Positions 1 to 6,300 of a stretch of DNA of 6,300 nt are shown in pieces. The position numbers and the translations under genes were made by a program. Numbering within the stretch: position 1 is the first letter of the stretch; each line of letters starts with the position of its first letter. Source of the DNA: a virus (taxonomy: Duplodnaviria > Heunggongvirae > Uroviricota > Caudoviricetes); the IMG/VR virus record IMGVR_UViG_648276671_000006, positions 1 to 6,300 of that record, one strand, 5' to 3'. Under the pieces are notes generated by a model that saw only the letters and a program-made list of their open reading frames with translations, was not told where the DNA came from and did not search any database.

Positions 1-203
1 GCTGAAAATGGCAGTAATGATTTATCCTCCGCCAGCGACTGGCGAACGGCAGGAACGAACCCGGACGGCAGATTACGCATGCTTTTCGGTTCCGGCTCCA
101 CCAGTATCCGGGTATTGTGGAATACTGGCATGGATTCACGGCCCAGCTTAAGGACCACCAACCCAAGTTCTGGTACCAGAACAGGTCGAAGTAATACCCG
201 CAC
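1..203 (-). CDS. hypothetical protein, truncated at the left window edge (N-terminus MRVLLRPVLVPELGLVVLKLGRESMPVFHNTRILVEPEPKSMRNLPSGFVPAVRQSLAEDKSLLPFS...)
   Basis: Minus-strand frame is open from GTG at 203..201 to position 1. GGAGG (212..208) lies 4 nt upstream, and the TAA stop of the preceding gene (207..205) sits inside the same GGAGGTAACGTG junction. An alternative in-frame ATG at 275..273 has only a weak GGA upstream. Not in the ORF track because it runs off the window. Product not recognised. Confidence 0.45.
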   Translation of the reverse strand, partial: MRVLLRPVLVPELGLVVLKLGRESMPVFHNTRILVEPEPKSMRNLPSGFVPAVRQSLAEDKSLLPFS

Positions 204-204
204 G

Positions 205-450
205 TTACCTCCAGATCCGTTGCTGGTATGTGCGGGATGGGCGCGGTGGGCGTTCGGAATAAGGGAGCCTGACATAGATTATCCAGTGACGATAATCGAG
301 GCTGAGGGCTTTCTTAATCTCGTATCCGCGTCTGCGGTAGTTCTGAATCAGCCATTCGGCCTGTTCTTCAGTGCAGGGGTTATGCTGGAACCAGTCTGGT
401 TTGAATGCGTGAAAACGCCGCTCATTGTAACTCGTTGCTTTTTGCGTCAT
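205..450 (-). CDS. hypothetical small protein (81 aa, MTQKATSYNERRFHAFKPDWFQHNPCTEEQAEWLIQNYRRRGYEI...)
   Basis: Track ORF 205..462 trimmed to the ATG at 450..448, which has GAGGA (460..456) 5 nt upstream. The N-terminal 50 residues look protein-like. The C-terminal 30 residues (RLPYSERPPRPSRTYQQRIWR) are low-complexity, so the true end is uncertain. Confidence 0.55.
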   Translation of the reverse strand: MTQKATSYNERRFHAFKPDWFQHNPCTEEQAEWLIQNYRRRGYEIKKALSLDYRHWIIYVRLPYSERPPRPSRTYQQRIWR

Positions 451-479
451 AACAATCCTCATGACGCATCATTATCAGA

Positions 480-511
480 CCCCACAGTGTTCAGCTATGG
501 GGTTTTATTAT
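480..511 (+). terminator. terminator-like hairpin with a plus-strand T-run, in the gap between two minus-strand genes
   Basis: CCCCACAG (480..487) pairs with CTATGGGG (495..502) with one mismatch, loop TGTTCAG, followed by TTTTATTAT on the plus strand. On the minus strand the same hairpin has no U-run after it. Confidence 0.3.
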
Positions 512-529
512 CTCCACTAACGGTGTCCG

Positions 530-748
530 CTACAAGCCCCCGGACGAATACTGCTGCACAATATCACGCAATACTGCGTGGGACACAATGCGTTCGTCAT
601 TATGCAGAGGGCGCACCCTTAATACCTTCCCCATTCGTCTCCAGACAGCTCTTTTACTATCAGGCAAACTATCCATCTCAGCAACCACTGCGCCATCAGA
701 GCGGCGAACAACTTCATATTCATGCTCCGTCAATGCGTGACTTCTCAT
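530..748 (-). CDS. hypothetical small protein (72 aa, MRSHALTEHEYEVVRRSDGAVVAEMDSLPDSKRAVWRRMGKVLRVRPLHNDERIVSHAVLRDIVQQYSSGGL)
   Basis: ATG at 748..746 with a strong AGGAGGAA 7 nt upstream. Balanced charged/hydrophobic composition. Lies downstream of the hok terminator, so it is probably a separate transcription unit or needs read-through. Confidence 0.6.
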   Translation of the reverse strand: MRSHALTEHEYEVVRRSDGAVVAEMDSLPDSKRAVWRRMGKVLRVRPLHNDERIVSHAVLRDIVQQYSSGGL

Positions 749-930
749 ATCGTATTTCCTCCTGGATCGTTACCTTCAAAATAAATCTTTCTGATAAGAG
801 AAATATAACCACCTGATGTGATTATTTCATCACCAATAATTGAGTGTTTTTTGCCCGCTCTCAATGAAATTTTTTTACGTCTGTTATCTAATCAGAAAGT
901 AGCGTGTCTTTTAAACAGTCGTTGATTTTG

Positions 931-957
931 GCAATAAAAAACCCGCCGAAGCGGGTT
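931..957 (-). terminator. rho-independent terminator of the hok transcript
   Basis: On the minus strand: AACCCGC-UUCG-GCGGGUU (plus 940..957) followed by UUUUAUUGC. GC-rich 7-bp stem with a UUCG tetraloop and U-run. Confidence 0.7.
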
Positions 958-960
958 AAG

Positions 961-1018
961 TGCGGGTGCGTTGAGGATGCCTGACACATCAGAGGTGGCG
1001 AGGGATTTCTCCCTCGCC
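961..1018 (-). promoter_or_regulatory. hok mRNA 3' elements: fbi-like box (961..976) and a perfect 9-bp hairpin (997..1018)
   Basis: The transcript here reads CCUCAACGCACCCGCA, complementary with one bulged C to the predicted 5' end UGCGGGUGCUUGAGG (1330..1316). GGCGAGGGA/UCCCUCGCC hairpin with a 4-nt loop sits just 3' of the hok stop. Confidence 0.5.
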
Positions 1019-1025
1019 TGGTCTC

Positions 1026-1181
1026 TTACTCCTCAGGTTCGTAAGCTGTGAAGACAGCGACCTCCGTCTGGCCGGTTCGGATTCGTACCTCGCAGAGGTC
1101 TTTCCTCGTTACCAGTGCCGTCACTATGACGGTTAAACAGATGACGATCAGGGCGATTAACATCGCCTTTTGCTGCTTCAT
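1026..1181 (-). CDS. hok: Hok/Gef-family type I toxin (51 aa, MKQQKAMLIALIVICLTVIVTALVTRKDLCEVRIRTGQTEVAVFTAYEPEE)
   Basis: Single hydrophobic transmembrane segment followed by the conserved RKxLCE.R...GxxEVAAF-like tail of Hok/Gef peptides. From memory it is closest to chromosomal HokD/RelF. ATG at 1181..1179 with AAGGAG 9 nt upstream. The 70-aa track ORF 1026..1238 is an in-frame N-terminal extension. Confidence 0.85.
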   Translation of the reverse strand: MKQQKAMLIALIVICLTVIVTALVTRKDLCEVRIRTGQTEVAVFTAYEPEE

Positions 1182-1227
1182 AGCCTGCTTCTCCTTGACC
1201 TTTCGGTCCGTAAGAGGCAATCTATAT

Positions 1228-1290
1228 GTGACGAGCATATAGGGGCCTCACTTCGATTTATAGTCGGGTGGGGCTTTTCTCTATCTGCCT
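1228..1290 (+). ncRNA. expected position of a Sok-like antisense RNA (approximate, not firmly located)
   Basis: By analogy with hok/sok loci, the antisense RNA should cover the leader-ORF SD (plus 1246..1251) and ATG (1236..1238). Plus-strand signals are weak: TTGACC (1195..1200), 17 nt, CAATCT; possible 3' stem 1245..1251/1268..1274 followed by TTTTCTCT. It may be degenerate. Confidence 0.2.
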
Positions 1291-1315
1291 TTGGTGGCAT
1301 GCCCGAGACAGATAG

Positions 1316-1361
1316 CCTCAAGCACCCGCAGCAATTCTACTTAACTCTCCTTTTCCCGCAA
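1316..1361 (-). promoter_or_regulatory. hok promoter and 5' tac-like box
   Basis: On the minus strand: TTGCGG (1361..1356), 16 nt, TAGAAT (1339..1334). Predicted start near 1328, giving a transcript of about 390 nt whose first 15 nt are complementary to 976..961. Confidence 0.45.
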
Positions 1362-1448
1362 ACCGTTTTTATCCCCATCGGCAAATCGAATACACCACCA
1401 GCGCCACCGCCAGTGCGATTCCTACCGTTGTGAATGCTTCAGGGCAGG

Positions 1449-1730
1449 TCATCGCAAAACATCCTCCGCGCTTATCAGTTCGTTCCGCTTCAGGTAGTCC
1501 ATCGCCTTCTCCGGTAATTTGCAGTCTGGATTAGCTTTTTTCAGTTGACTGACCAGTCGTTTAACCCACATTGTTAATTCGCCAACTTGGTTACTGGATG
1601 CTAATGGATTGTCGGCTTTACCCAGAATGACAGCACAGCAGGCCTCTTTGAGAACCCAATCAACAGCATCTTTCCATACTCCTGTTTCGACTGGTGGATT
1701 CTCACGCTTTACCTGTTCATAAAAGCGCAC
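1449..1730 (-). CDS. hypothetical protein (93 aa, VRFYEQVKRENPPVETGVWKDAVDWVLKEACCAVILGKADNPLASSNQVGELTMWVKRLVSQLKKANPDCKLPEKAMDYLKRNELISAEDVLR)
   Basis: Protein-like composition. The only start available is GTG at 1730..1728, with no convincing SD; it overlaps the upstream gene by 22 nt, so translation may be coupled. No in-frame ATG before residue 54. Confidence 0.5.
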   Translation of the reverse strand: MRFYEQVKRENPPVETGVWKDAVDWVLKEACCAVILGKADNPLASSNQVGELTMWVKRLVSQLKKANPDCKLPEKAMDYLKRNELISAEDVLR

Positions 1731-1957
1731 GGCTTTAACCAGTCCTTACGCGCCTGCTCCGAAGGAAATATCCCATGCCCCGAACCATATACTGCACCAC
1801 TGACCACCAGCTCTTTCGCCAGAACTTCTATCAGGTGTCTGGTAGCTCCGGTTTCATCTTCCAGTTGCTTACGCGTTTTCCTTCCGTCTCTGCGTACCAG
1901 TTCCACAATACGCGCCTTCAGTTGTTCCCTGTATTCAGGTGTAAAAGCGTTTCCCAT
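1709..1957 (-). CDS. small winged-helix-like protein (82 aa, MGNAFTPEYREQLKARIVELVRRDGRKTRKQLEDETGATRHLIEVLAKELVVSGAVYGSGHGIFPSEQARKDWLKPCAFMNR)
   Basis: Track ORF 1709..2014 begins at a TTG. The ATG at 1957..1955 has GAGG 5 nt upstream, overlapping the stop of the previous gene. Contains a K.T..EL....G.S...V...L...L...G.V motif also found twice in the 256-aa neighbour. Confidence 0.6.
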   Translation of the reverse strand: MGNAFTPEYREQLKARIVELVRRDGRKTRKQLEDETGATRHLIEVLAKELVVSGAVYGSGHGIFPSEQARKDWLKPCAFMNR

Positions 1958-1964
1958 AAACGCC

Positions 1965-2735
1965 TCACTTTTCCGATACAACGCGACTGGTGGAATCGAC
2001 AATCTGTCGAACAATATCCCGGTGCTTGTTCAGCTCCCGTAGCGCGGCGCAGACACGCTCCCACTTCTGGACATGGCTTTTCGCCCGACGCAGTTCACGA
2101 TTTGCCATATGCAGCGATGGTAAAATCAGGTCATCCGCTCGAGTTTCGGTGAACGATGACAACGACTGCACAATGTCCGCCACAGTTTCTGTTTTAATTT
2201 CTTCCTGTATTGCAGCTTCCTGTACAGGTAACGCAACGCCGGCTGGCTGAGGAAAGGCTTTACCATCATTTTCCGTTACCAATGCGACTTTCGGCTTTAC
2301 TGGTAAATTCTCGCCCGGCATGCAGTAGCGAAATTTACCGTTCTGGTTTACGCGTGCCAGCCGCCCCGTTGCGGTTACTACCGCCAGTGTGGAAGCAACC
2401 TTGCGAGTGCTGACACCGAACTTACCCGCCAGTTCCTCACACGTTTTAGCTCCCTCCTGACCGATAAACTCAATCATCATGTCAGCGGTAACTTTTCGTT
2501 CGACCTCCCTGGTTAACACATCTTGTGTTTCAGATTGTGCTGGCTGCTCTTCGGCTCCCCCTGATTCACCTTCGCCAGCCACACGCCAGGTGTATGCACT
2601 TTTATCAACGAAGCCAGCCTTTTTCAGTTCCCACAGCTCCTTCAGCACTTCTTCACGACTGATATCAAGTCGCGTAGTCAGTTCTACCGACGTGGCTTTT
2701 CCCATTGCTTTCAGTGCGTCAAAAACAGTCTCCAT
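1965..2735 (-). CDS. hypothetical protein with two tandem winged-helix-like motifs and a helical C-terminal region (256 aa)
   Basis: ATG at 2735..2733 with GGGAGGA 5 nt upstream; 33-nt gap after the P-like stop. Motifs [32 protein letters not shown] and [33 protein letters not shown]. No Walker A/B or nuclease motifs seen. Confidence 0.8.
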
Positions 2736-2768
2736 AAATTTCCTCCCGGTAAAAAATCACTTCTCAAC

Positions 2769-3434
2769 TCAAACAAAACCAGCCGCTTTCCGGCGTTCAT
2801 ACTCCTGTTTCAGCAACTCAATTGGCGTTGGTCCCGACGGGCGTTTGGGTGCTGCCAGTTGCCGCCGTACGGGCGGAACGCTGAGGCCGTTGCCAACATG
2901 CTTTGCCCATTTCGTCAGCTGCCGTTCTGCAAGCCGTTTTAACTCCCCTTCGGTCATCTGGCATTCAATCCCCTTTGAACGCATCTCGAGGCAAATGTGA
3001 TACAGCACAGGCTGAGACCACGGGTATTTATCGCTTCCGTCGTATCGCCAGGACTCATTGCGCCAGCGTCGGTACTCCTCCATCACGCCATCTACCGTCA
3101 GACCAAATGGATTTGCCCCGCTCTCCGAAATCAGCGCCACAAACTCAGCCAGGTCCGGAGGCCATGTTTCACCCGCCCGGCAGCGGTCCATGCACTGGCG
3201 GCAGACCTGCCGGATTTGCTGCTCAGTCATCGCGCCAATCTGTGCAATCCAGAGCTTCGAAGGTGCGGACCCGTTCTTCTGGGTCCAGCGGTTCGAATAA
3301 ACCTCCCCCATGAGTTCCCACAGCTTCCACGCCGTTTCCGTCGCTGATAAATCCGTTTTCACGTTCCCACTGTTCACGTGCTGCCCGAATTTCCTGAACT
3401 GCCCGTGATGCGGTGCCACCTGGTGCTGCTGCAT
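2769..3434 (-). CDS. replication protein P-like helicase loader
   Basis: The C-terminal two thirds align by eye with lambda P ([18 protein letters not shown] vs ESYPWKSNAHYWLVTNLY; [13 protein letters not shown] vs TDAELRRKAADEL). Start is uncertain: ATG at 3434 has a G-rich SD but overlaps the O-like gene by 212 nt; internal ATGs at 3311 and 3230 (the latter an ATGACTGA overlap with the O-like stop) are alternatives. Confidence 0.7.
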
Positions 3435-4263
3435 GGCTCCCCCCCTTGCTGACTGGTTTAACCTGCGCCCTGACGTGATTTACGTGACGGGCAAATTTCT
3501 GCTCCCACTGAACCTGCGTGAAAACTTTTCCCTCCTCTGCCCAGTAATCCCGGAAGGCGGCAAGTTCAGCAGGTGTAAATTCCGGCTCCGGCAAAGCCAC
3601 TCCCCACAGTGCAGCCCGCCGTCGAAAATCCGGCGACGGATACCAGTCATCGGTCATCGGAAATTTTCCGATGCGTTCGCTCAGGCCATCCAGGAATGCA
3701 GGGGGCGTTGCCTGTGACGGCAAAACTTCCCTCTCACTGGTCGGAGCACTCTCGCGTGCGTTATGTATGGGGTTTAGATCTTTAGGTTCCTTTGGGTTCC
3801 GTGATCCGTTTTTGGGTGTCTTTGATGGAAAATTTGGGTGCCTTTGGTTATTTTCTATGCTGCAAAGAGTCCCGTTTTTGGGTCTGTTTTGTGCGGAAAC
3901 ACAACCGTTTTTGGTGCTGTTTTTATTAACAGTACCAATTTTACCCACCTTTAAAGACTCCCGTTTTTGGGTGTATTCAGGCTCGGCAACACTTTCTTCA
4001 ACACCGATAAGTTGGTACACCACAATTTGCTTTGTTCGACCTTTTCTCTCACCGGTATCAACAATTAACCCAATCTCCATCAGGTGCCGTAAGCTGTCCT
4101 GCACAGTTTTTTTGTTCAGTTCCGTTACTTCTGCCAGTGCAGATACAGACGGGTATGCACACAAATCGGCACCGCACATATCAGCAAGCCAGGTCAATAC
4201 TGACTTACTGGATGAACTGCCGGTTTTCACCCTTTTAGCCCATCGTAGTGCATCGATACTCAT
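3223..4263 (-). CDS. O-like replication initiator: N-terminal HTH domain, PKNG-repeat linker, DnaT-like C-terminal domain
   Basis: Track ORF 3223..4338 starts at TTG. The ATG at 4263..4261 has GAGG 5 nt upstream ([15 protein letters not shown]...). N-terminal region resembles phage replication-initiator HTH domains; [48 protein letters not shown] resembles the DnaT C-terminal domain. Iteron-like repeats lie inside the linker-coding segment. Confidence 0.8.
3783..3976. repeat. iteron-like direct repeats (CCGTTTTTGGGTG family), putative replication origin inside the initiator gene
   Basis: Near-identical copies at 3806..3818, 3872..3884, 3905..3916 and 3961..3973, plus degenerate TTTGGGT(T/G)CC copies at 3791..3800 and 3833..3842. 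An AT-rich stretch lies at 3917..3958. On the coding strand the repeats translate to recurring PKNG. Confidence 0.55.
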
Positions 4264-4786
4264 GCGAACCTCGACCAGGTATCTGTTGACCCGCAAAGCA
4301 ATGTTGGTATTGCTGACGATATGCACGTTTGAAAGCAATAGCTTTTTCTATAAGCTCGTCAGCCTCACGCTCCACAACAGTTGGATCTGCAAAAAGCAGC
4401 CCGGACTCCACCACATCACCATACTCTTTGTTTAACCCGGCGATCATGTACGTAATGCTTTTTCCGTCAGTAATTTCACAATACAACCTGAAATCACTGA
4501 TCCGGATAGCCTCCATAATTGCCGGAATCAGCGCCGTGAATTTTTCACGCTTATCCCTGGTGTCGATAGCTTTCCAGCGTTCAAATATCTTCACCCTGTT
4601 AACGCCAAGCGCCCGCTGATCAACCACGCCATCATCAAATGTGACACGTTGAACATCGATGTTCGGGCGCTCTTTCAGAGCCCAGAAGGCTTCTGTGATT
4701 AATATCGTCGCCTGCTCCTGCGTCATTCCCGGGCTGCATACCCAGGAGTCCAGAGCCTCACGAGCCTGCTCAGGAGTGAATATCAT
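4235..4786 (-). CDS. YdaT-like protein, positional equivalent of lambda CII (183 aa)
   Basis: Sits between the Cro-like gene and the initiator, as cII does in lambda. ATG at 4786..4784 overlaps the Cro-like stop by 17 nt. Assignment to the YdaT family is from memory of prophage YdaS/YdaT pairs, not from a search. Confidence 0.7.
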
Positions 4787-5063
4787 TGTTCACCGCCAGT
4801 GATTCATTTGTCATACACTTATTCCCACAAGGCAGCCCATCGGTTAGATTGGGGTAAATATCTGGGCGAAGCTCGTGGGGGGTGACTTGCCATTCAAGGA
4901 GCACACAAAGAGGAATGACCCGCTCAGCTGGTATTGATTTATTGGCAAACCATTTTCCAACCCCTTGCCCACTAATCCCAAAGCGTTCTCCAATCTCGAC
5001 AAAGGAAAAGTTTTTTTTAATCTTGTCTCGTAGATCGTTTAGTTTTTGATGTTTTTTAGCCAC
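4770..5063 (-). CDS. Cro/YdaS-like HTH regulator (97 aa from the GTG start)
   Basis: HTH FVEIGERFGISGQGVGKWFANKSIPAERV and an ELRPD motif as in YdaS-type Cro proteins. Track ORF 4770..5162 would leave only 11 nt to the divergent repressor. GTG at 5063..5061 has a near-consensus SD GAGGTGAGG (5078..5070). ATG at 5087 is an alternative, possibly leaderless. Confidence 0.7.
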   Translation of the reverse strand: MAKKHQKLNDLRDKIKKNFSFVEIGERFGISGQGVGKWFANKSIPAERVIPLCVLLEWQVTPHELRPDIYPNLTDGLPCGNKCMTNESLAVNNDIHS

Positions 5064-5173
5064 ACAACACCTCACCTCTTGGTTCATCACTGGGAGCATA
5101 ACAGGCGAAAGTTTACGTTTCAAGAACAAGGAAACAAATAGTTGTACTGATAATCGAAACATTTGGTTGTAAA
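5064..5173. promoter_or_regulatory. divergent promoter/operator region of the immunity switch
   Basis: Three operator-like sites about 25 bp apart: GAAAGTTTACGTTTC (5107..5121, palindromic GAAA-N7-TTTC), GAAACAAATAGTTGTAC (5131..5147) and GAAACATTTGGTTGTAA (5156..5172). Leftward promoter TTGAAA (5123..5118), 17 nt, TATGCT (5100..5095). Rightward promoter CTGATA (5147..5152), 17 nt, TAAAAT (5170..5175). Confidence 0.55.
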
Positions 5174-5599
5174 ATGCAGGCTATGAACGATACCGTTAAC
5201 AATGTTTTTGCAAAAAGAATCCAGCAAGTGATGGATGAAAATGGCTGGAATAAGTCAGACCTGGCTAAGCGGGTCATGTTATCTCACACCGCGGTTCAGA
5301 ATTGGGCAAAAGGCATCAGCGTAGCCAGCGGTGTAAGATTAAAAAGGCTCGCAGCTGTAACAGGAAAGCCTGAGTACTGGTTTTTTATGGATCGGGATGC
5401 AGGAGGCGATGAAAATCACCAAGATATACCAATACCCATTGTGCTTGATGACAAAGAGAAAGCCCTGCTCTCAATTTTCAATCAAATGCCAGAAGCAGAA
5501 AAGTTACGCCTAATTATCCATGCTAAGGAAGTCCTGAGAGAGCTGGAACTGCTTAAGAGCGATGTTTTCGATATTATCAACGATCAATTAAAACCATAG
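5174..5599 (+). CDS. DicA-like HTH (XRE-family) prophage repressor, 141 aa
   Basis: N-terminal HTH SDLAKRVMLSHTAVQNWAKG; the C-terminal segment LDDKEKALLSIFNQMPEAEKLRLIIHAKEV resembles the DicA C-terminal region. No peptidase S24 (LexA-like) domain. Divergent from the Cro-like gene. The start may instead be the ATG at 5183, because the -10 TAAAAT overlaps the first ATG. Confidence 0.85.
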   Translation: MQAMNDTVNNVFAKRIQQVMDENGWNKSDLAKRVMLSHTAVQNWAKGISVASGVRLKRLAAVTGKPEYWFFMDRDAGGDENHQDIPIPIVLDDKEKALLSIFNQMPEAEKLRLIIHAKEVLRELELLKSDVFDIINDQLKP

Positions 5600-5624
5600 C
5601 TAACAAACCATCCACACATCAGAC

Positions 5625-5652
5625 AAAAAGCACCTTTCTGGTGCTTTTTTTT
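5625..5652 (+). terminator. rho-independent terminator after the repressor gene
   Basis: AAAAAGCACC-TTTCT-GGTGCTTTTT: perfect 10-bp stem, 5-nt loop, then a T-run to 5652. The A-run before the stem makes it potentially bidirectional. Confidence 0.7.
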
Positions 5653-5661
5653 GCCCAGAAA

Positions 5662-5712
5662 CGAAATTTTCTATTTCGCACACTTTACACGCGAAAGTTA
5701 TTGTTGCACAAT
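5662..5712 (+). promoter_or_regulatory. second operator-bearing promoter (PL-like) for the rightward ydfA-like operon
   Basis: GAAATTTTCTATTTC (5663..5677) is a second GAAA-N7-TTTC palindrome. GAAAGTTATTGTTGCAC (5693..5709) matches 12 of 17 positions of the 5131..5147 site. Candidate promoter TTTACA (5684..5689), 17 nt, CACAAT (5707..5712). Confidence 0.35.
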
Positions 5713-5790
5713 CCACACCATCAACAACGAAACGCATCGTTGTCAGGCTAAAGTTCCGCTACCCCGGCGTTAAGGGGAAATGAGGTCAAC

Positions 5791-5943
5791 ATGGATACTA
5801 TCGATCTTGGCAACAACGAATCTCTGGTGTACGGCGTGTTTCCCAACCAGGACGGCACGTTCACCGCGATGACGTATACCAAAAGCAAAACATTTAAAAC
5901 CGAAGCTGGCGCGCGTCGCTGGTTAGCCAGAAACACTGACTGA
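5791..5943 (+). CDS. YdfA-like small protein (50 aa, MDTIDLGNNESLVYGVFPNQDGTFTAMTYTKSKTFKTEAGARRWLARNTD)
   Basis: Below the ORF-track length cutoff. ATG at 5791 with GAGG 5 nt upstream; stop TGA at 5941..5943. Its position immediately downstream of a DicA-like repressor matches the dicA-ydfA arrangement of the Qin prophage. Sequence identity to YdfA is from uncertain memory. Confidence 0.6.
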   Translation: MDTIDLGNNESLVYGVFPNQDGTFTAMTYTKSKTFKTEAGARRWLARNTD

Positions 5944-5954
5944 TGAGGTTGACG

Positions 5955-6300
5955 ATGGAATTTAAAGATTTACCAAAAGAAATCCAGTCCATTGCTGCAA
6001 CGACACTTAGTGATAGCCTGGTGGAAATTAACCCGGCATACATCAAAAAGGAAACCATCGATAATTTGGTTCGTAATGTGCGCGATGCGTTTACCGGATT
6101 GTACTCCGTTTCGGTAACAAACAACCAGAATACTGAAGAAGCTGCAAAGCGGAATGCCTCGGTGACGGGTTTTCATGTCGAGGAAAAGTATTCAAAAAAG
6201 AATTCTGGAAAACTGCAAAAAAATTGCAGAGCGAGAACTGTCATCTCCTGCGGCAAATCGGTTCTTTCTATGAGGAAAGTTATTCAGATGACACAGGATT
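5955..6300 (+). CDS. hypothetical protein, truncated at the right window edge (MEFKDLPKEIQSIAATTLSDSLVEINPAYIKKETIDNLVRNVRDAFTGLYSVSVTNNQNTEEAAKRNASVTGFHVEEKYSKK...)
   Basis: ATG at 5955 with GAGG 6 nt upstream, 11 nt after the ydfA-like stop. The frame stays open to position 6300. The first 80 residues look protein-like; the last 35 are lysine/serine-rich and contain a perfect hairpin, so the real gene may end earlier in other strains. Confidence 0.4.
   Translation, partial: MEFKDLPKEIQSIAATTLSDSLVEINPAYIKKETIDNLVRNVRDAFTGLYSVSVTNNQNTEEAAKRNASVTGFHVEEKYSKKNSGKLQKNCRARTVISCGKSVLSMRKVIQMTQD

Follow-up and report, generated by a model that had tools for sequence, protein, structure and literature searches.

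In phage lambda, N is the first gene from the repressor-controlled leftward promoter and lies downstream of the repressor gene. In the Qin prophage of Escherichia coli K-12, the gene order is dicA, ydfA, ydfB, ydfC, dicF, dicB, ydfD, ydfE and intQ, and published work likewise places ydfA after dicA and ahead of dicF and dicB (PMC10448788). The K-12 ydfA mRNA has been seen by Northern blot and RT-PCR, and dicBp, the PL analogue upstream of ydfA, is repressed 22-fold by DicA (PMC10448788). In the Rac prophage, which encodes the related protein YdaF, the order is racR, ydaG, ydaF, (sieB), kilS, kilR, ydaE, racC and recE. Both ydfA and ydaF were described as uncharacterised in the 2016 and 2023 papers on dicBF and in the 2023 paper on Rac, and the literature that we searched contained no proteomic or ribosome-profiling evidence for ydfA or its homologues. 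Two other uses of the name have to be set aside: the "ydfA" of the IbfA paper (PMC12111858) is the name of an unrelated IncI-plasmid gene, and the "YdfA" of PMC6606824 denotes Hha-like proteins.

We analyzed a 6.3-kb stretch of DNA, hereafter the window (positions 1 to 6,300 of the IMG/VR record IMGVR_UViG_648276671_000006, from a virus of the Caudoviricetes), in which positions 5791-5943 on the plus strand very probably correspond to a functional gene of the ydfA/ydaF family, the first cistron in the early-left (PL-like, "dicB-type") operon of a Qin/Rac-type lambdoid Escherichia prophage. As a first-pass annotation of this DNA had reported, the gene is small but well formed. It consists of 50 sense codons starting with an ATG at 5791 and ending at a TGA stop (5941-5943), with a Shine-Dalgarno sequence GAGG at 5782-5785, 5 nt 5' of the ATG, and it encodes a 50-aa DUF1391 protein, MDTIDLGNNESLVYGVFPNQDGTFTAMTYTKSKTFKTEAGARRWLARNTD. 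The start is unambiguous in the window copy, since there is no in-frame ATG, GTG or TTG between the upstream stop and 5791. The same annotation held that the gene had been dropped from its list of ORFs because of its shortness, which is plausible since 50 aa falls short of the 60-aa default cut-off for ORFs. The gene is likewise uncalled on contig GL884357.1 (GCA_000176655.2; 9285 bp), where the gene calls run from the repressor directly to the next ORF, in agreement with the view that this is an easily missed gene. A 50-codon ORF by itself does not rise above chance, since the window contains 72 ORFs of at least 30 aa; the match to DUF1391 in Pfam and the pattern of selection lie far above chance.

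Membership in the DUF1391 family (PF07151) is clear-cut, with a Pfam match of 100.6 bits (E 3.6e-29, cutoff 27.3) in which residues 2-48 of the window protein correspond to positions 1-47 of the 48-position model. The protein also matches phrog_751 (E 3.1e-36), a family to which no function is assigned, and NCBIfam returned no informative match for it. A homologue search covering 5.8 billion proteins gave 339 matches. PF07151 is present in all of the 120 listed, which come from E. coli, Shigella, Salmonella, E. albertii and E. marmotae, and whose source names include "DUF1391 family protein," "YdaF family protein," and "prophage protein." Identity is ~94% to K-12 YdfA from Qin, over 49 residues, and ~86% to K-12 YdaF from Rac. 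The guess of YdfA/DUF1391 made in the first-pass annotation was therefore correct, and the small-protein search for which it had asked found homologues to be abundant, when their lack would have counted against the gene. To define the family core, we aligned 68 sequences with identities as low as 44%. N8 does not vary, and at least 90% of the sequences conserve E10, G15, G22, A26, S32, F35, K36, T37, G40, A41, and W44; the window protein has N8 and every one of these residues. The family is also very widespread. The DNA block matches 3973 of the 5426 complete E. coli genomes, with 2 matching places in the median genome and at most 7, and the exact 50-aa protein occurs in 738 blocks of the indexed assembly collection. 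The gene is already known. It belongs to a named family and occupies the position usual for that family; in K-12 it bears the name ydfA, and the label "DUF1391 family protein" is attached to its homologues in RefSeq already.

The ydfA protein is under purifying selection in the relatives of this prophage. Among 14 distinct ydfA alleles drawn from the loci that we fetched, variable sites are distributed over codon positions 1, 2, and 3 as 8, 6, and 27, and five alleles whose protein is identical to that of the window differ from it by three to seven synonymous changes and by no non-synonymous change. An antisense ORF (5748-5936, minus strand, 62 aa, GTG start) has the same third codon positions as ydfA, and pN/pS was for this reason computed in all six frames. 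The sense frame has the lowest value of the six (0.138), the frame of the antisense ORF has 0.244, and the other four range from 1.9 to 3.9. A +1-frame ORF that overlaps ydfA (5780-5872) was rejected as non-coding, with a pN/pS of 2.4. Purifying selection across the family does not prevent single copies from degenerating in cryptic prophages, as indicated by two decayed copies of ydfA, one with a frameshift in E. coli ECGI0523 (L025, 3001-3220) and one that has lost its start codon in Shigella flexneri (L023, 3001-3129).

Upstream of ydfA lies a probable repressor gene of the DicA/CI class (5174-5599, plus strand), which encodes a 141-aa HTH_3 protein (Pfam E 4e-8). The lack of a Peptidase_S24 domain in Pfam, together with its length, suggests a short repressor of the DicA class, with the qualification that it scores 44 bits against the NCBIfam DicA subfamily model, below the model cutoff of 101. 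The repressor gene is divergent from a minus-strand gene for a YdaS/Cro-like protein, which belongs to a replication/early-right set of minus-strand genes that also encode a DUF1627 protein, a lambda-P-like protein, a DnaT-domain O-like protein, and a YdaT-like protein. Elsewhere on the minus strand of the window, a hok/sok-type toxin-antitoxin locus occupies 1026-1327. Its sok part matches Rfam at 1179-1327 with 108 bits (gathering score 59), the C-terminal end encoded by an overlapping ORF (1026-1238) is Hok-like (…MKQQKAMLIALIVICLTVIVTALVTRKDLCEVRIRTGQTEVAVFTAYEPEE), and the element is also found in related prophage loci.

The repressor gene is followed, starting 26 nt past its stop codon, by an intrinsic terminator (5625-5652, plus strand) that was identified by folding and by an inverted-repeat search. 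Its core stem, GCACC/GGTGC, is extended by A/T pairs and closed by a TTTCT loop, the stem forming a perfect 10-nt inverted repeat (I4), and it ends in a run of eight T (5645-5652). The predicted folding energy of -14.7 kcal/mol is well below that of shuffled sequences (z -3.7). A simple terminator scan of the window did not pick up this hairpin, seemingly because its stem extends into the run of T. The small gene had been described as sitting immediately after the repressor terminator; it does come after the terminator, but not immediately, for the ydfA ATG is found 138 nt past the T-run and the gap holds a promoter-like site. This site, TTTACA-17-CACAAT at 5684-5712 on the plus strand, matches the sigma-70 consensus at 9 of 12 positions, and in a MAFFT alignment it falls on the K-12 TTGACC-17-TAATCT that lies between dicA and ydfA, in the region that contains dicBp. 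We infer that it is a candidate analogue of PL/dicBp that would drive ydfA. The spacer of the promoter-like site contains a possible operator (5687-5708, plus strand), which is a direct repeat (family D1) of positions 5101-5122 in the divergent cro/repressor promoter region. The two 22-nt copies are 77% identical and have a common core, GCGAAAGTT; since some 16-mer match with at most three mismatches occurs between the two regulatory regions in 6.5% of shuffles, the repeat rises only a little above chance and is put forward tentatively as a candidate repressor operator.

Between the promoter-like site and ydfA is a conserved 5' leader (5739-5790, plus strand), delimited by BLAST blocks and by an alignment of eight sequences that is nearly invariant from GTTCCGC onward. 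It includes a hairpin-capable element, CCCCGGCGTTAAGGGG, at 5762-5777, just 5' of the Shine-Dalgarno sequence, which is nearly invariant in the eight aligned prophages, K-12 among them. We rejected the idea that this element is a structured RNA or a site of the nut kind: the fold of the leader does not surpass those of its shuffles (z -0.23), the hairpin shows no covariation, and Rfam finds nothing there.

A BLAST comparison with 25 related loci reveals mosaicism in this region. Similarity to most of these loci ends at 4797 and restarts at 5739 or 5753, boundaries that define the immunity module as a distinct cassette and the ydfA leader and coding sequence as a separate, highly conserved block. 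The cassette comprises the YdaS/Cro-like gene, the 141-aa repressor gene, the terminator, the promoter region, and the candidate operators, and its boundaries (4797-5739) are sharp against relatives that are otherwise 86-97% identical. It represents a rare immunity type, since the exact repressor protein is present on only two contigs of the whole assembly collection. The longer of the two is GL884357.1, which ends at the same base as the window and is evidently the contig from which the window comes.

On the other side of ydfA, the following gene of the operon begins at 5955, 12 nt past the stop codon of ydfA, and is open to the end of the window at 6300 (plus strand). It matches phrog_1363 (E 5e-30), a protein family without an assigned function, which here stands in for ydfB/ydfC of K-12. 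This ORF is preceded by a separate GAGG (5945-5948), and a second possible start, an in-frame ATG at 5943, overlaps the ydfA stop (TGATG); relatives are called from the equivalent of 5955, and GL884357.1 is called from 5943. With either start, the arrangement suggests that ydfA and the next ORF may be translationally coupled. The ribosome-binding contexts of the two genes are much alike (ATGAGGTTGACGATGGA for the next ORF and ATGAGGTCAACATGGA for ydfA). There is no ydfB downstream of the window ydfA, and E. coli matches need a gap of ~130 bp at the place of ydfB. This gene is also reported to be missing in strain ATCC 8739 (PMC5069750) and is thus not essential to the operon.

The window and its contig both end at 6300, and the rest of the operon is therefore extrapolated from other prophages, which have different immunity regions; Rfam finds no DicF within the window. 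In each of the other eight prophage loci that encode the identical protein, all of them chromosomal, a gene for DicB or KilR lies on the same strand, 1.1-2 kb downstream. These loci are arranged alike, with YdfA followed after 12 nt by an unknown protein of 109-211 aa, then DicB/KilR, a YdfE/exonuclease VIII-like protein, and an integrase, and most of them have DUF1482 (YdfD) and a Xis-type gene between DicB/KilR and the integrase. Six of these eight loci were also scanned for the DicF RNA, and three of the six have it. A cI gene followed by DUF1391 is likewise seen in Serratia phage OS31. The statement that small proteins head the operon for cell-division inhibitors in Qin-like prophages holds for K-12 Qin and for all eight of these loci. 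In Rac, YdaF comes second, after ydaG.

These features are consistent with the following scheme, which draws on K-12 Qin and on the alignment. In a lysogen, the repressor would bind operators overlapping 5684-5712 and keep the operon off, and the terminator at 5625-5652 would insulate ydfA from read-through out of the repressor gene. Upon derepression, a transcript would begin ~70 nt 5' of the ATG and be translated from the GAGG, after which ribosomes would continue into the following ORF, which starts 12 nt further on. In the relatives, the same transcript would go on to yield DicF, DicB or KilR, a RecE-like exonuclease, Xis, and Int.

What YdfA might do was approached through its predicted structure and through the proteins in which DUF1391 occurs. 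The AlphaFold2 model, computed from the 68-sequence alignment, has a mean pLDDT of 78.8 and a small, confidently predicted β3-α fold, in which three strands (residues 15-18, 24-27, and 32-35) precede a C-terminal helix (38-49). A Foldseek search with this model against the PDB and BFVD gave nothing at E ≤ 0.001, and no structural match to known anti-restriction proteins emerged from the Foldseek searches of PDB and BFVD or from the PDB profile search. Sequence searches of the PDB with the single protein and with the 68-sequence profile gave chance-level matches only, namely to bagel β-propeller designs and HisF, which were rejected. A match to the head decoration protein of phage 21 (gpD/SHP), at E 0.17, was likewise rejected as homology, and PADLOC gave only a marginal match to AbiEi (E 0.005).

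We scanned 1.84 billion representatives exhaustively with HMMER (E ≤ 1e-3) and recovered 229 relatives, most of which are solo proteins of 45-110 aa. About a dozen are proteins of 440-935 aa in which the DUF1391 core is internal and is 62-67% identical to the window protein. Five of these combine DarA_N with DUF1391 (P0187, P0189, P0190, P0194, and P0201), two combine ArdC-N with DUF1391 and DUF3560 (P0188 and one member of alignment A3), and P0228 has two tandem copies of DUF1391. DarA stands for "defence against restriction A," and the N-terminal domain of ArdC is an anti-restriction domain. P0187, a DarA_N-DUF1391 protein, is encoded on a phage contig where its gene adjoins portal and tail genes, and its DarA_N part matches phrog_1926, annotated as "released from the phage upon host infection"; a protein of this type may therefore be injected. 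Such "polyvalent protein" architectures were described by Iyer et al. in 2017 (PMC5512222). The main text of that paper does not mention DUF1391, DarA_N has no known biochemical activity (PMC5512222), and we found no report of a DUF1391 fusion to DarA_N or ArdC-N in the literature searched. These fusions concern the family and not the window locus, the protein of which is the solo form.

The fusions, one of them encoded beside portal and tail genes, suggest an early, host-directed role. On the strength of the co-occurrence with DarA_N or ArdC-N, we tentatively propose that YdfA could be a small β-β-β-α module whose target is a host or defence component and which acts as soon as infection or induction begins, at the outset of the lytic programme. 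DUF1391 would then be present in the host cytoplasm as early as is possible, having either come in ready-made with the virion or been the first protein expressed from a PL-like promoter. It is a possible, if speculative, extension of this idea that DUF1391 is an unrecognised counter-defence or host-takeover module, delivered within DarA_N/ArdC-N proteins or made as the first PL-like product. If so, YdfA and YdaF, which about three-quarters of the complete E. coli genomes encode, would be factors of an anti-restriction-like kind and not idle y-genes.

The main rival to this counter-defence reading, although an unlikely one, is a regulatory or nucleic-acid-binding role, in which YdfA would control its own operon as an N-like antitermination or processing factor or as a small DNA-binding protein. 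The place of YdfA directly after a PL-like promoter, as for N in lambda, fits such a role, as does the strongly conserved leader with its hairpin-capable element just upstream; this leader, however, is the one that folds no better than shuffles and whose hairpin lacks covariation, and YdfA has no N-type arginine-rich motif. It is similarly improbable that the predicted β-β-β-α topology would work as a DNA-binding module of the AP2 or integrase arm-binding kind. The weak Foldseek matches do include a lambda integrase entry (1z1b) and several phage HNH endonucleases, but all structural matches are non-significant, with E of at least 0.7 in the PDB and, to unannotated proteins, of at least 0.04 in BFVD. 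The distribution of the family also argues against a regulator, since DUF1391 occurs in phages with quite different early-gene arrangements, and its presence inside a large phage protein encoded beside structural genes is a poor fit to an operon-specific regulator.

Two further explanations appear far less probable than a regulatory role. That YdfA is a host-toxic or cell-division-inhibiting small protein, like DicB and KilR, might be supposed from its co-transcription with DicF and DicB in Qin and from the ~40-fold co-induction of Rac ydaF with kilR upon perturbation of RacR (PMC6765115). We nevertheless consider it very unlikely, because cells in which a K-12 operon without dicF and dicB but with ydfABC was induced grew normally, stayed viable, and did not filament (PMC5069750), and because a filamentation screen of an expression library lists the whole dicA-to-exoO region without singling out ydfA. 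In our reading, YdfA itself is not the cell-division inhibitor. Slightly less credible still is that the sense frame is not the product at all, and that the real gene is the antisense ORF at 5748-5936 or that the region is an untranslated RNA leader or cis-acting "leader peptide." The antisense ORF is indeed open in all close relatives and has a low pN/pS, and ydfA is uncalled in the source assembly, but low pN/pS and few stops are the artefact to be expected in a frame whose third codon positions are common with those of ydfA, and the sense value is the lower of the two. The antisense ORF moreover starts with GTG and runs against the operon. In phages of Serratia and Salicola, the homologues preserve the sense protein with its motifs, stops interrupt the antisense frame, and distant homologues have their own RBS-like, purine-rich stretches upstream of the sense frame. 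The occurrence of the module inside large proteins would be impossible for a leader that acts merely in cis. The six-frame pN/pS values, the broken antisense frame of distant homologues, and the larger proteins together identify the sense frame as the gene.

The locus also illustrates how small genes of this kind are handled in databases. Length cut-offs drop real small genes, as seen from ydfA being uncalled in the source assembly. Many database entries carry spurious N-terminal extensions to 77-86 aa, which arise because the leader is open in frame. In several GenBank phage records, the homologue is N-terminally extended to 78 aa and named "head-DNA stabilization protein D," and such a misnamed homologue sits in the early-left operon beside ydfB, ydfC, and dicB. 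This name is probably a propagated misannotation, and the weak gpD/SHP match may have led some annotators to it. The positions noted for the missing call and the misnaming are 5791-5943 of the window, 8776-8928 of locus L032, and 2420-2656 of locus L035. Annotating ydfA in the window is by itself of little consequence; wider interest lies only in the function of a very widespread y-ome protein, for which the fusion to DarA_N/ArdC-N provides a concrete hypothesis.

How, then, does this locus compare with the known systems? Lambda N is a positional analogue only. It has no likeness in sequence or composition to YdfA, which is without the arginine-rich motif, no boxA/boxB-type nut site was recognised, and we claim no homology. 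The DUF1391 modules of the DarA_N/ArdC-N fusions have in common with the window protein a core of ~46 residues with the motif GNNE…G…DGTFTA(M/L)T…SK.FKT..GA..W, but they are internal domains of proteins of 440-935 aa, whereas the window copy is a free-standing early gene. YdaF of Rac (b4527) is of the same family, and its gene likewise lies in the leftward operon next to the repressor, which continues to the gene for the cell-division inhibitor KilR; YdaF differs in being the second gene, after ydaG, in having RacR as its repressor, and in being followed by an antisense sieB. The closest counterpart is YdfA of Qin (b1571; PF07151). The upstream immunity regions of Qin and the window are unrelated in sequence, the C-terminal tails of the two proteins differ (…EAGARRWLARNTD in the window and …ENGARRWLERNSGE in K-12), and ydfA is followed by ydfB in Qin but by the phrog_1363 ORF in the window. 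The two agree in length class (51 aa in K-12, 50 aa here), in the context of the Shine-Dalgarno sequence and ATG, and in the place of the gene, which precedes the remaining early-left genes and comes directly after that of a short HTH repressor.
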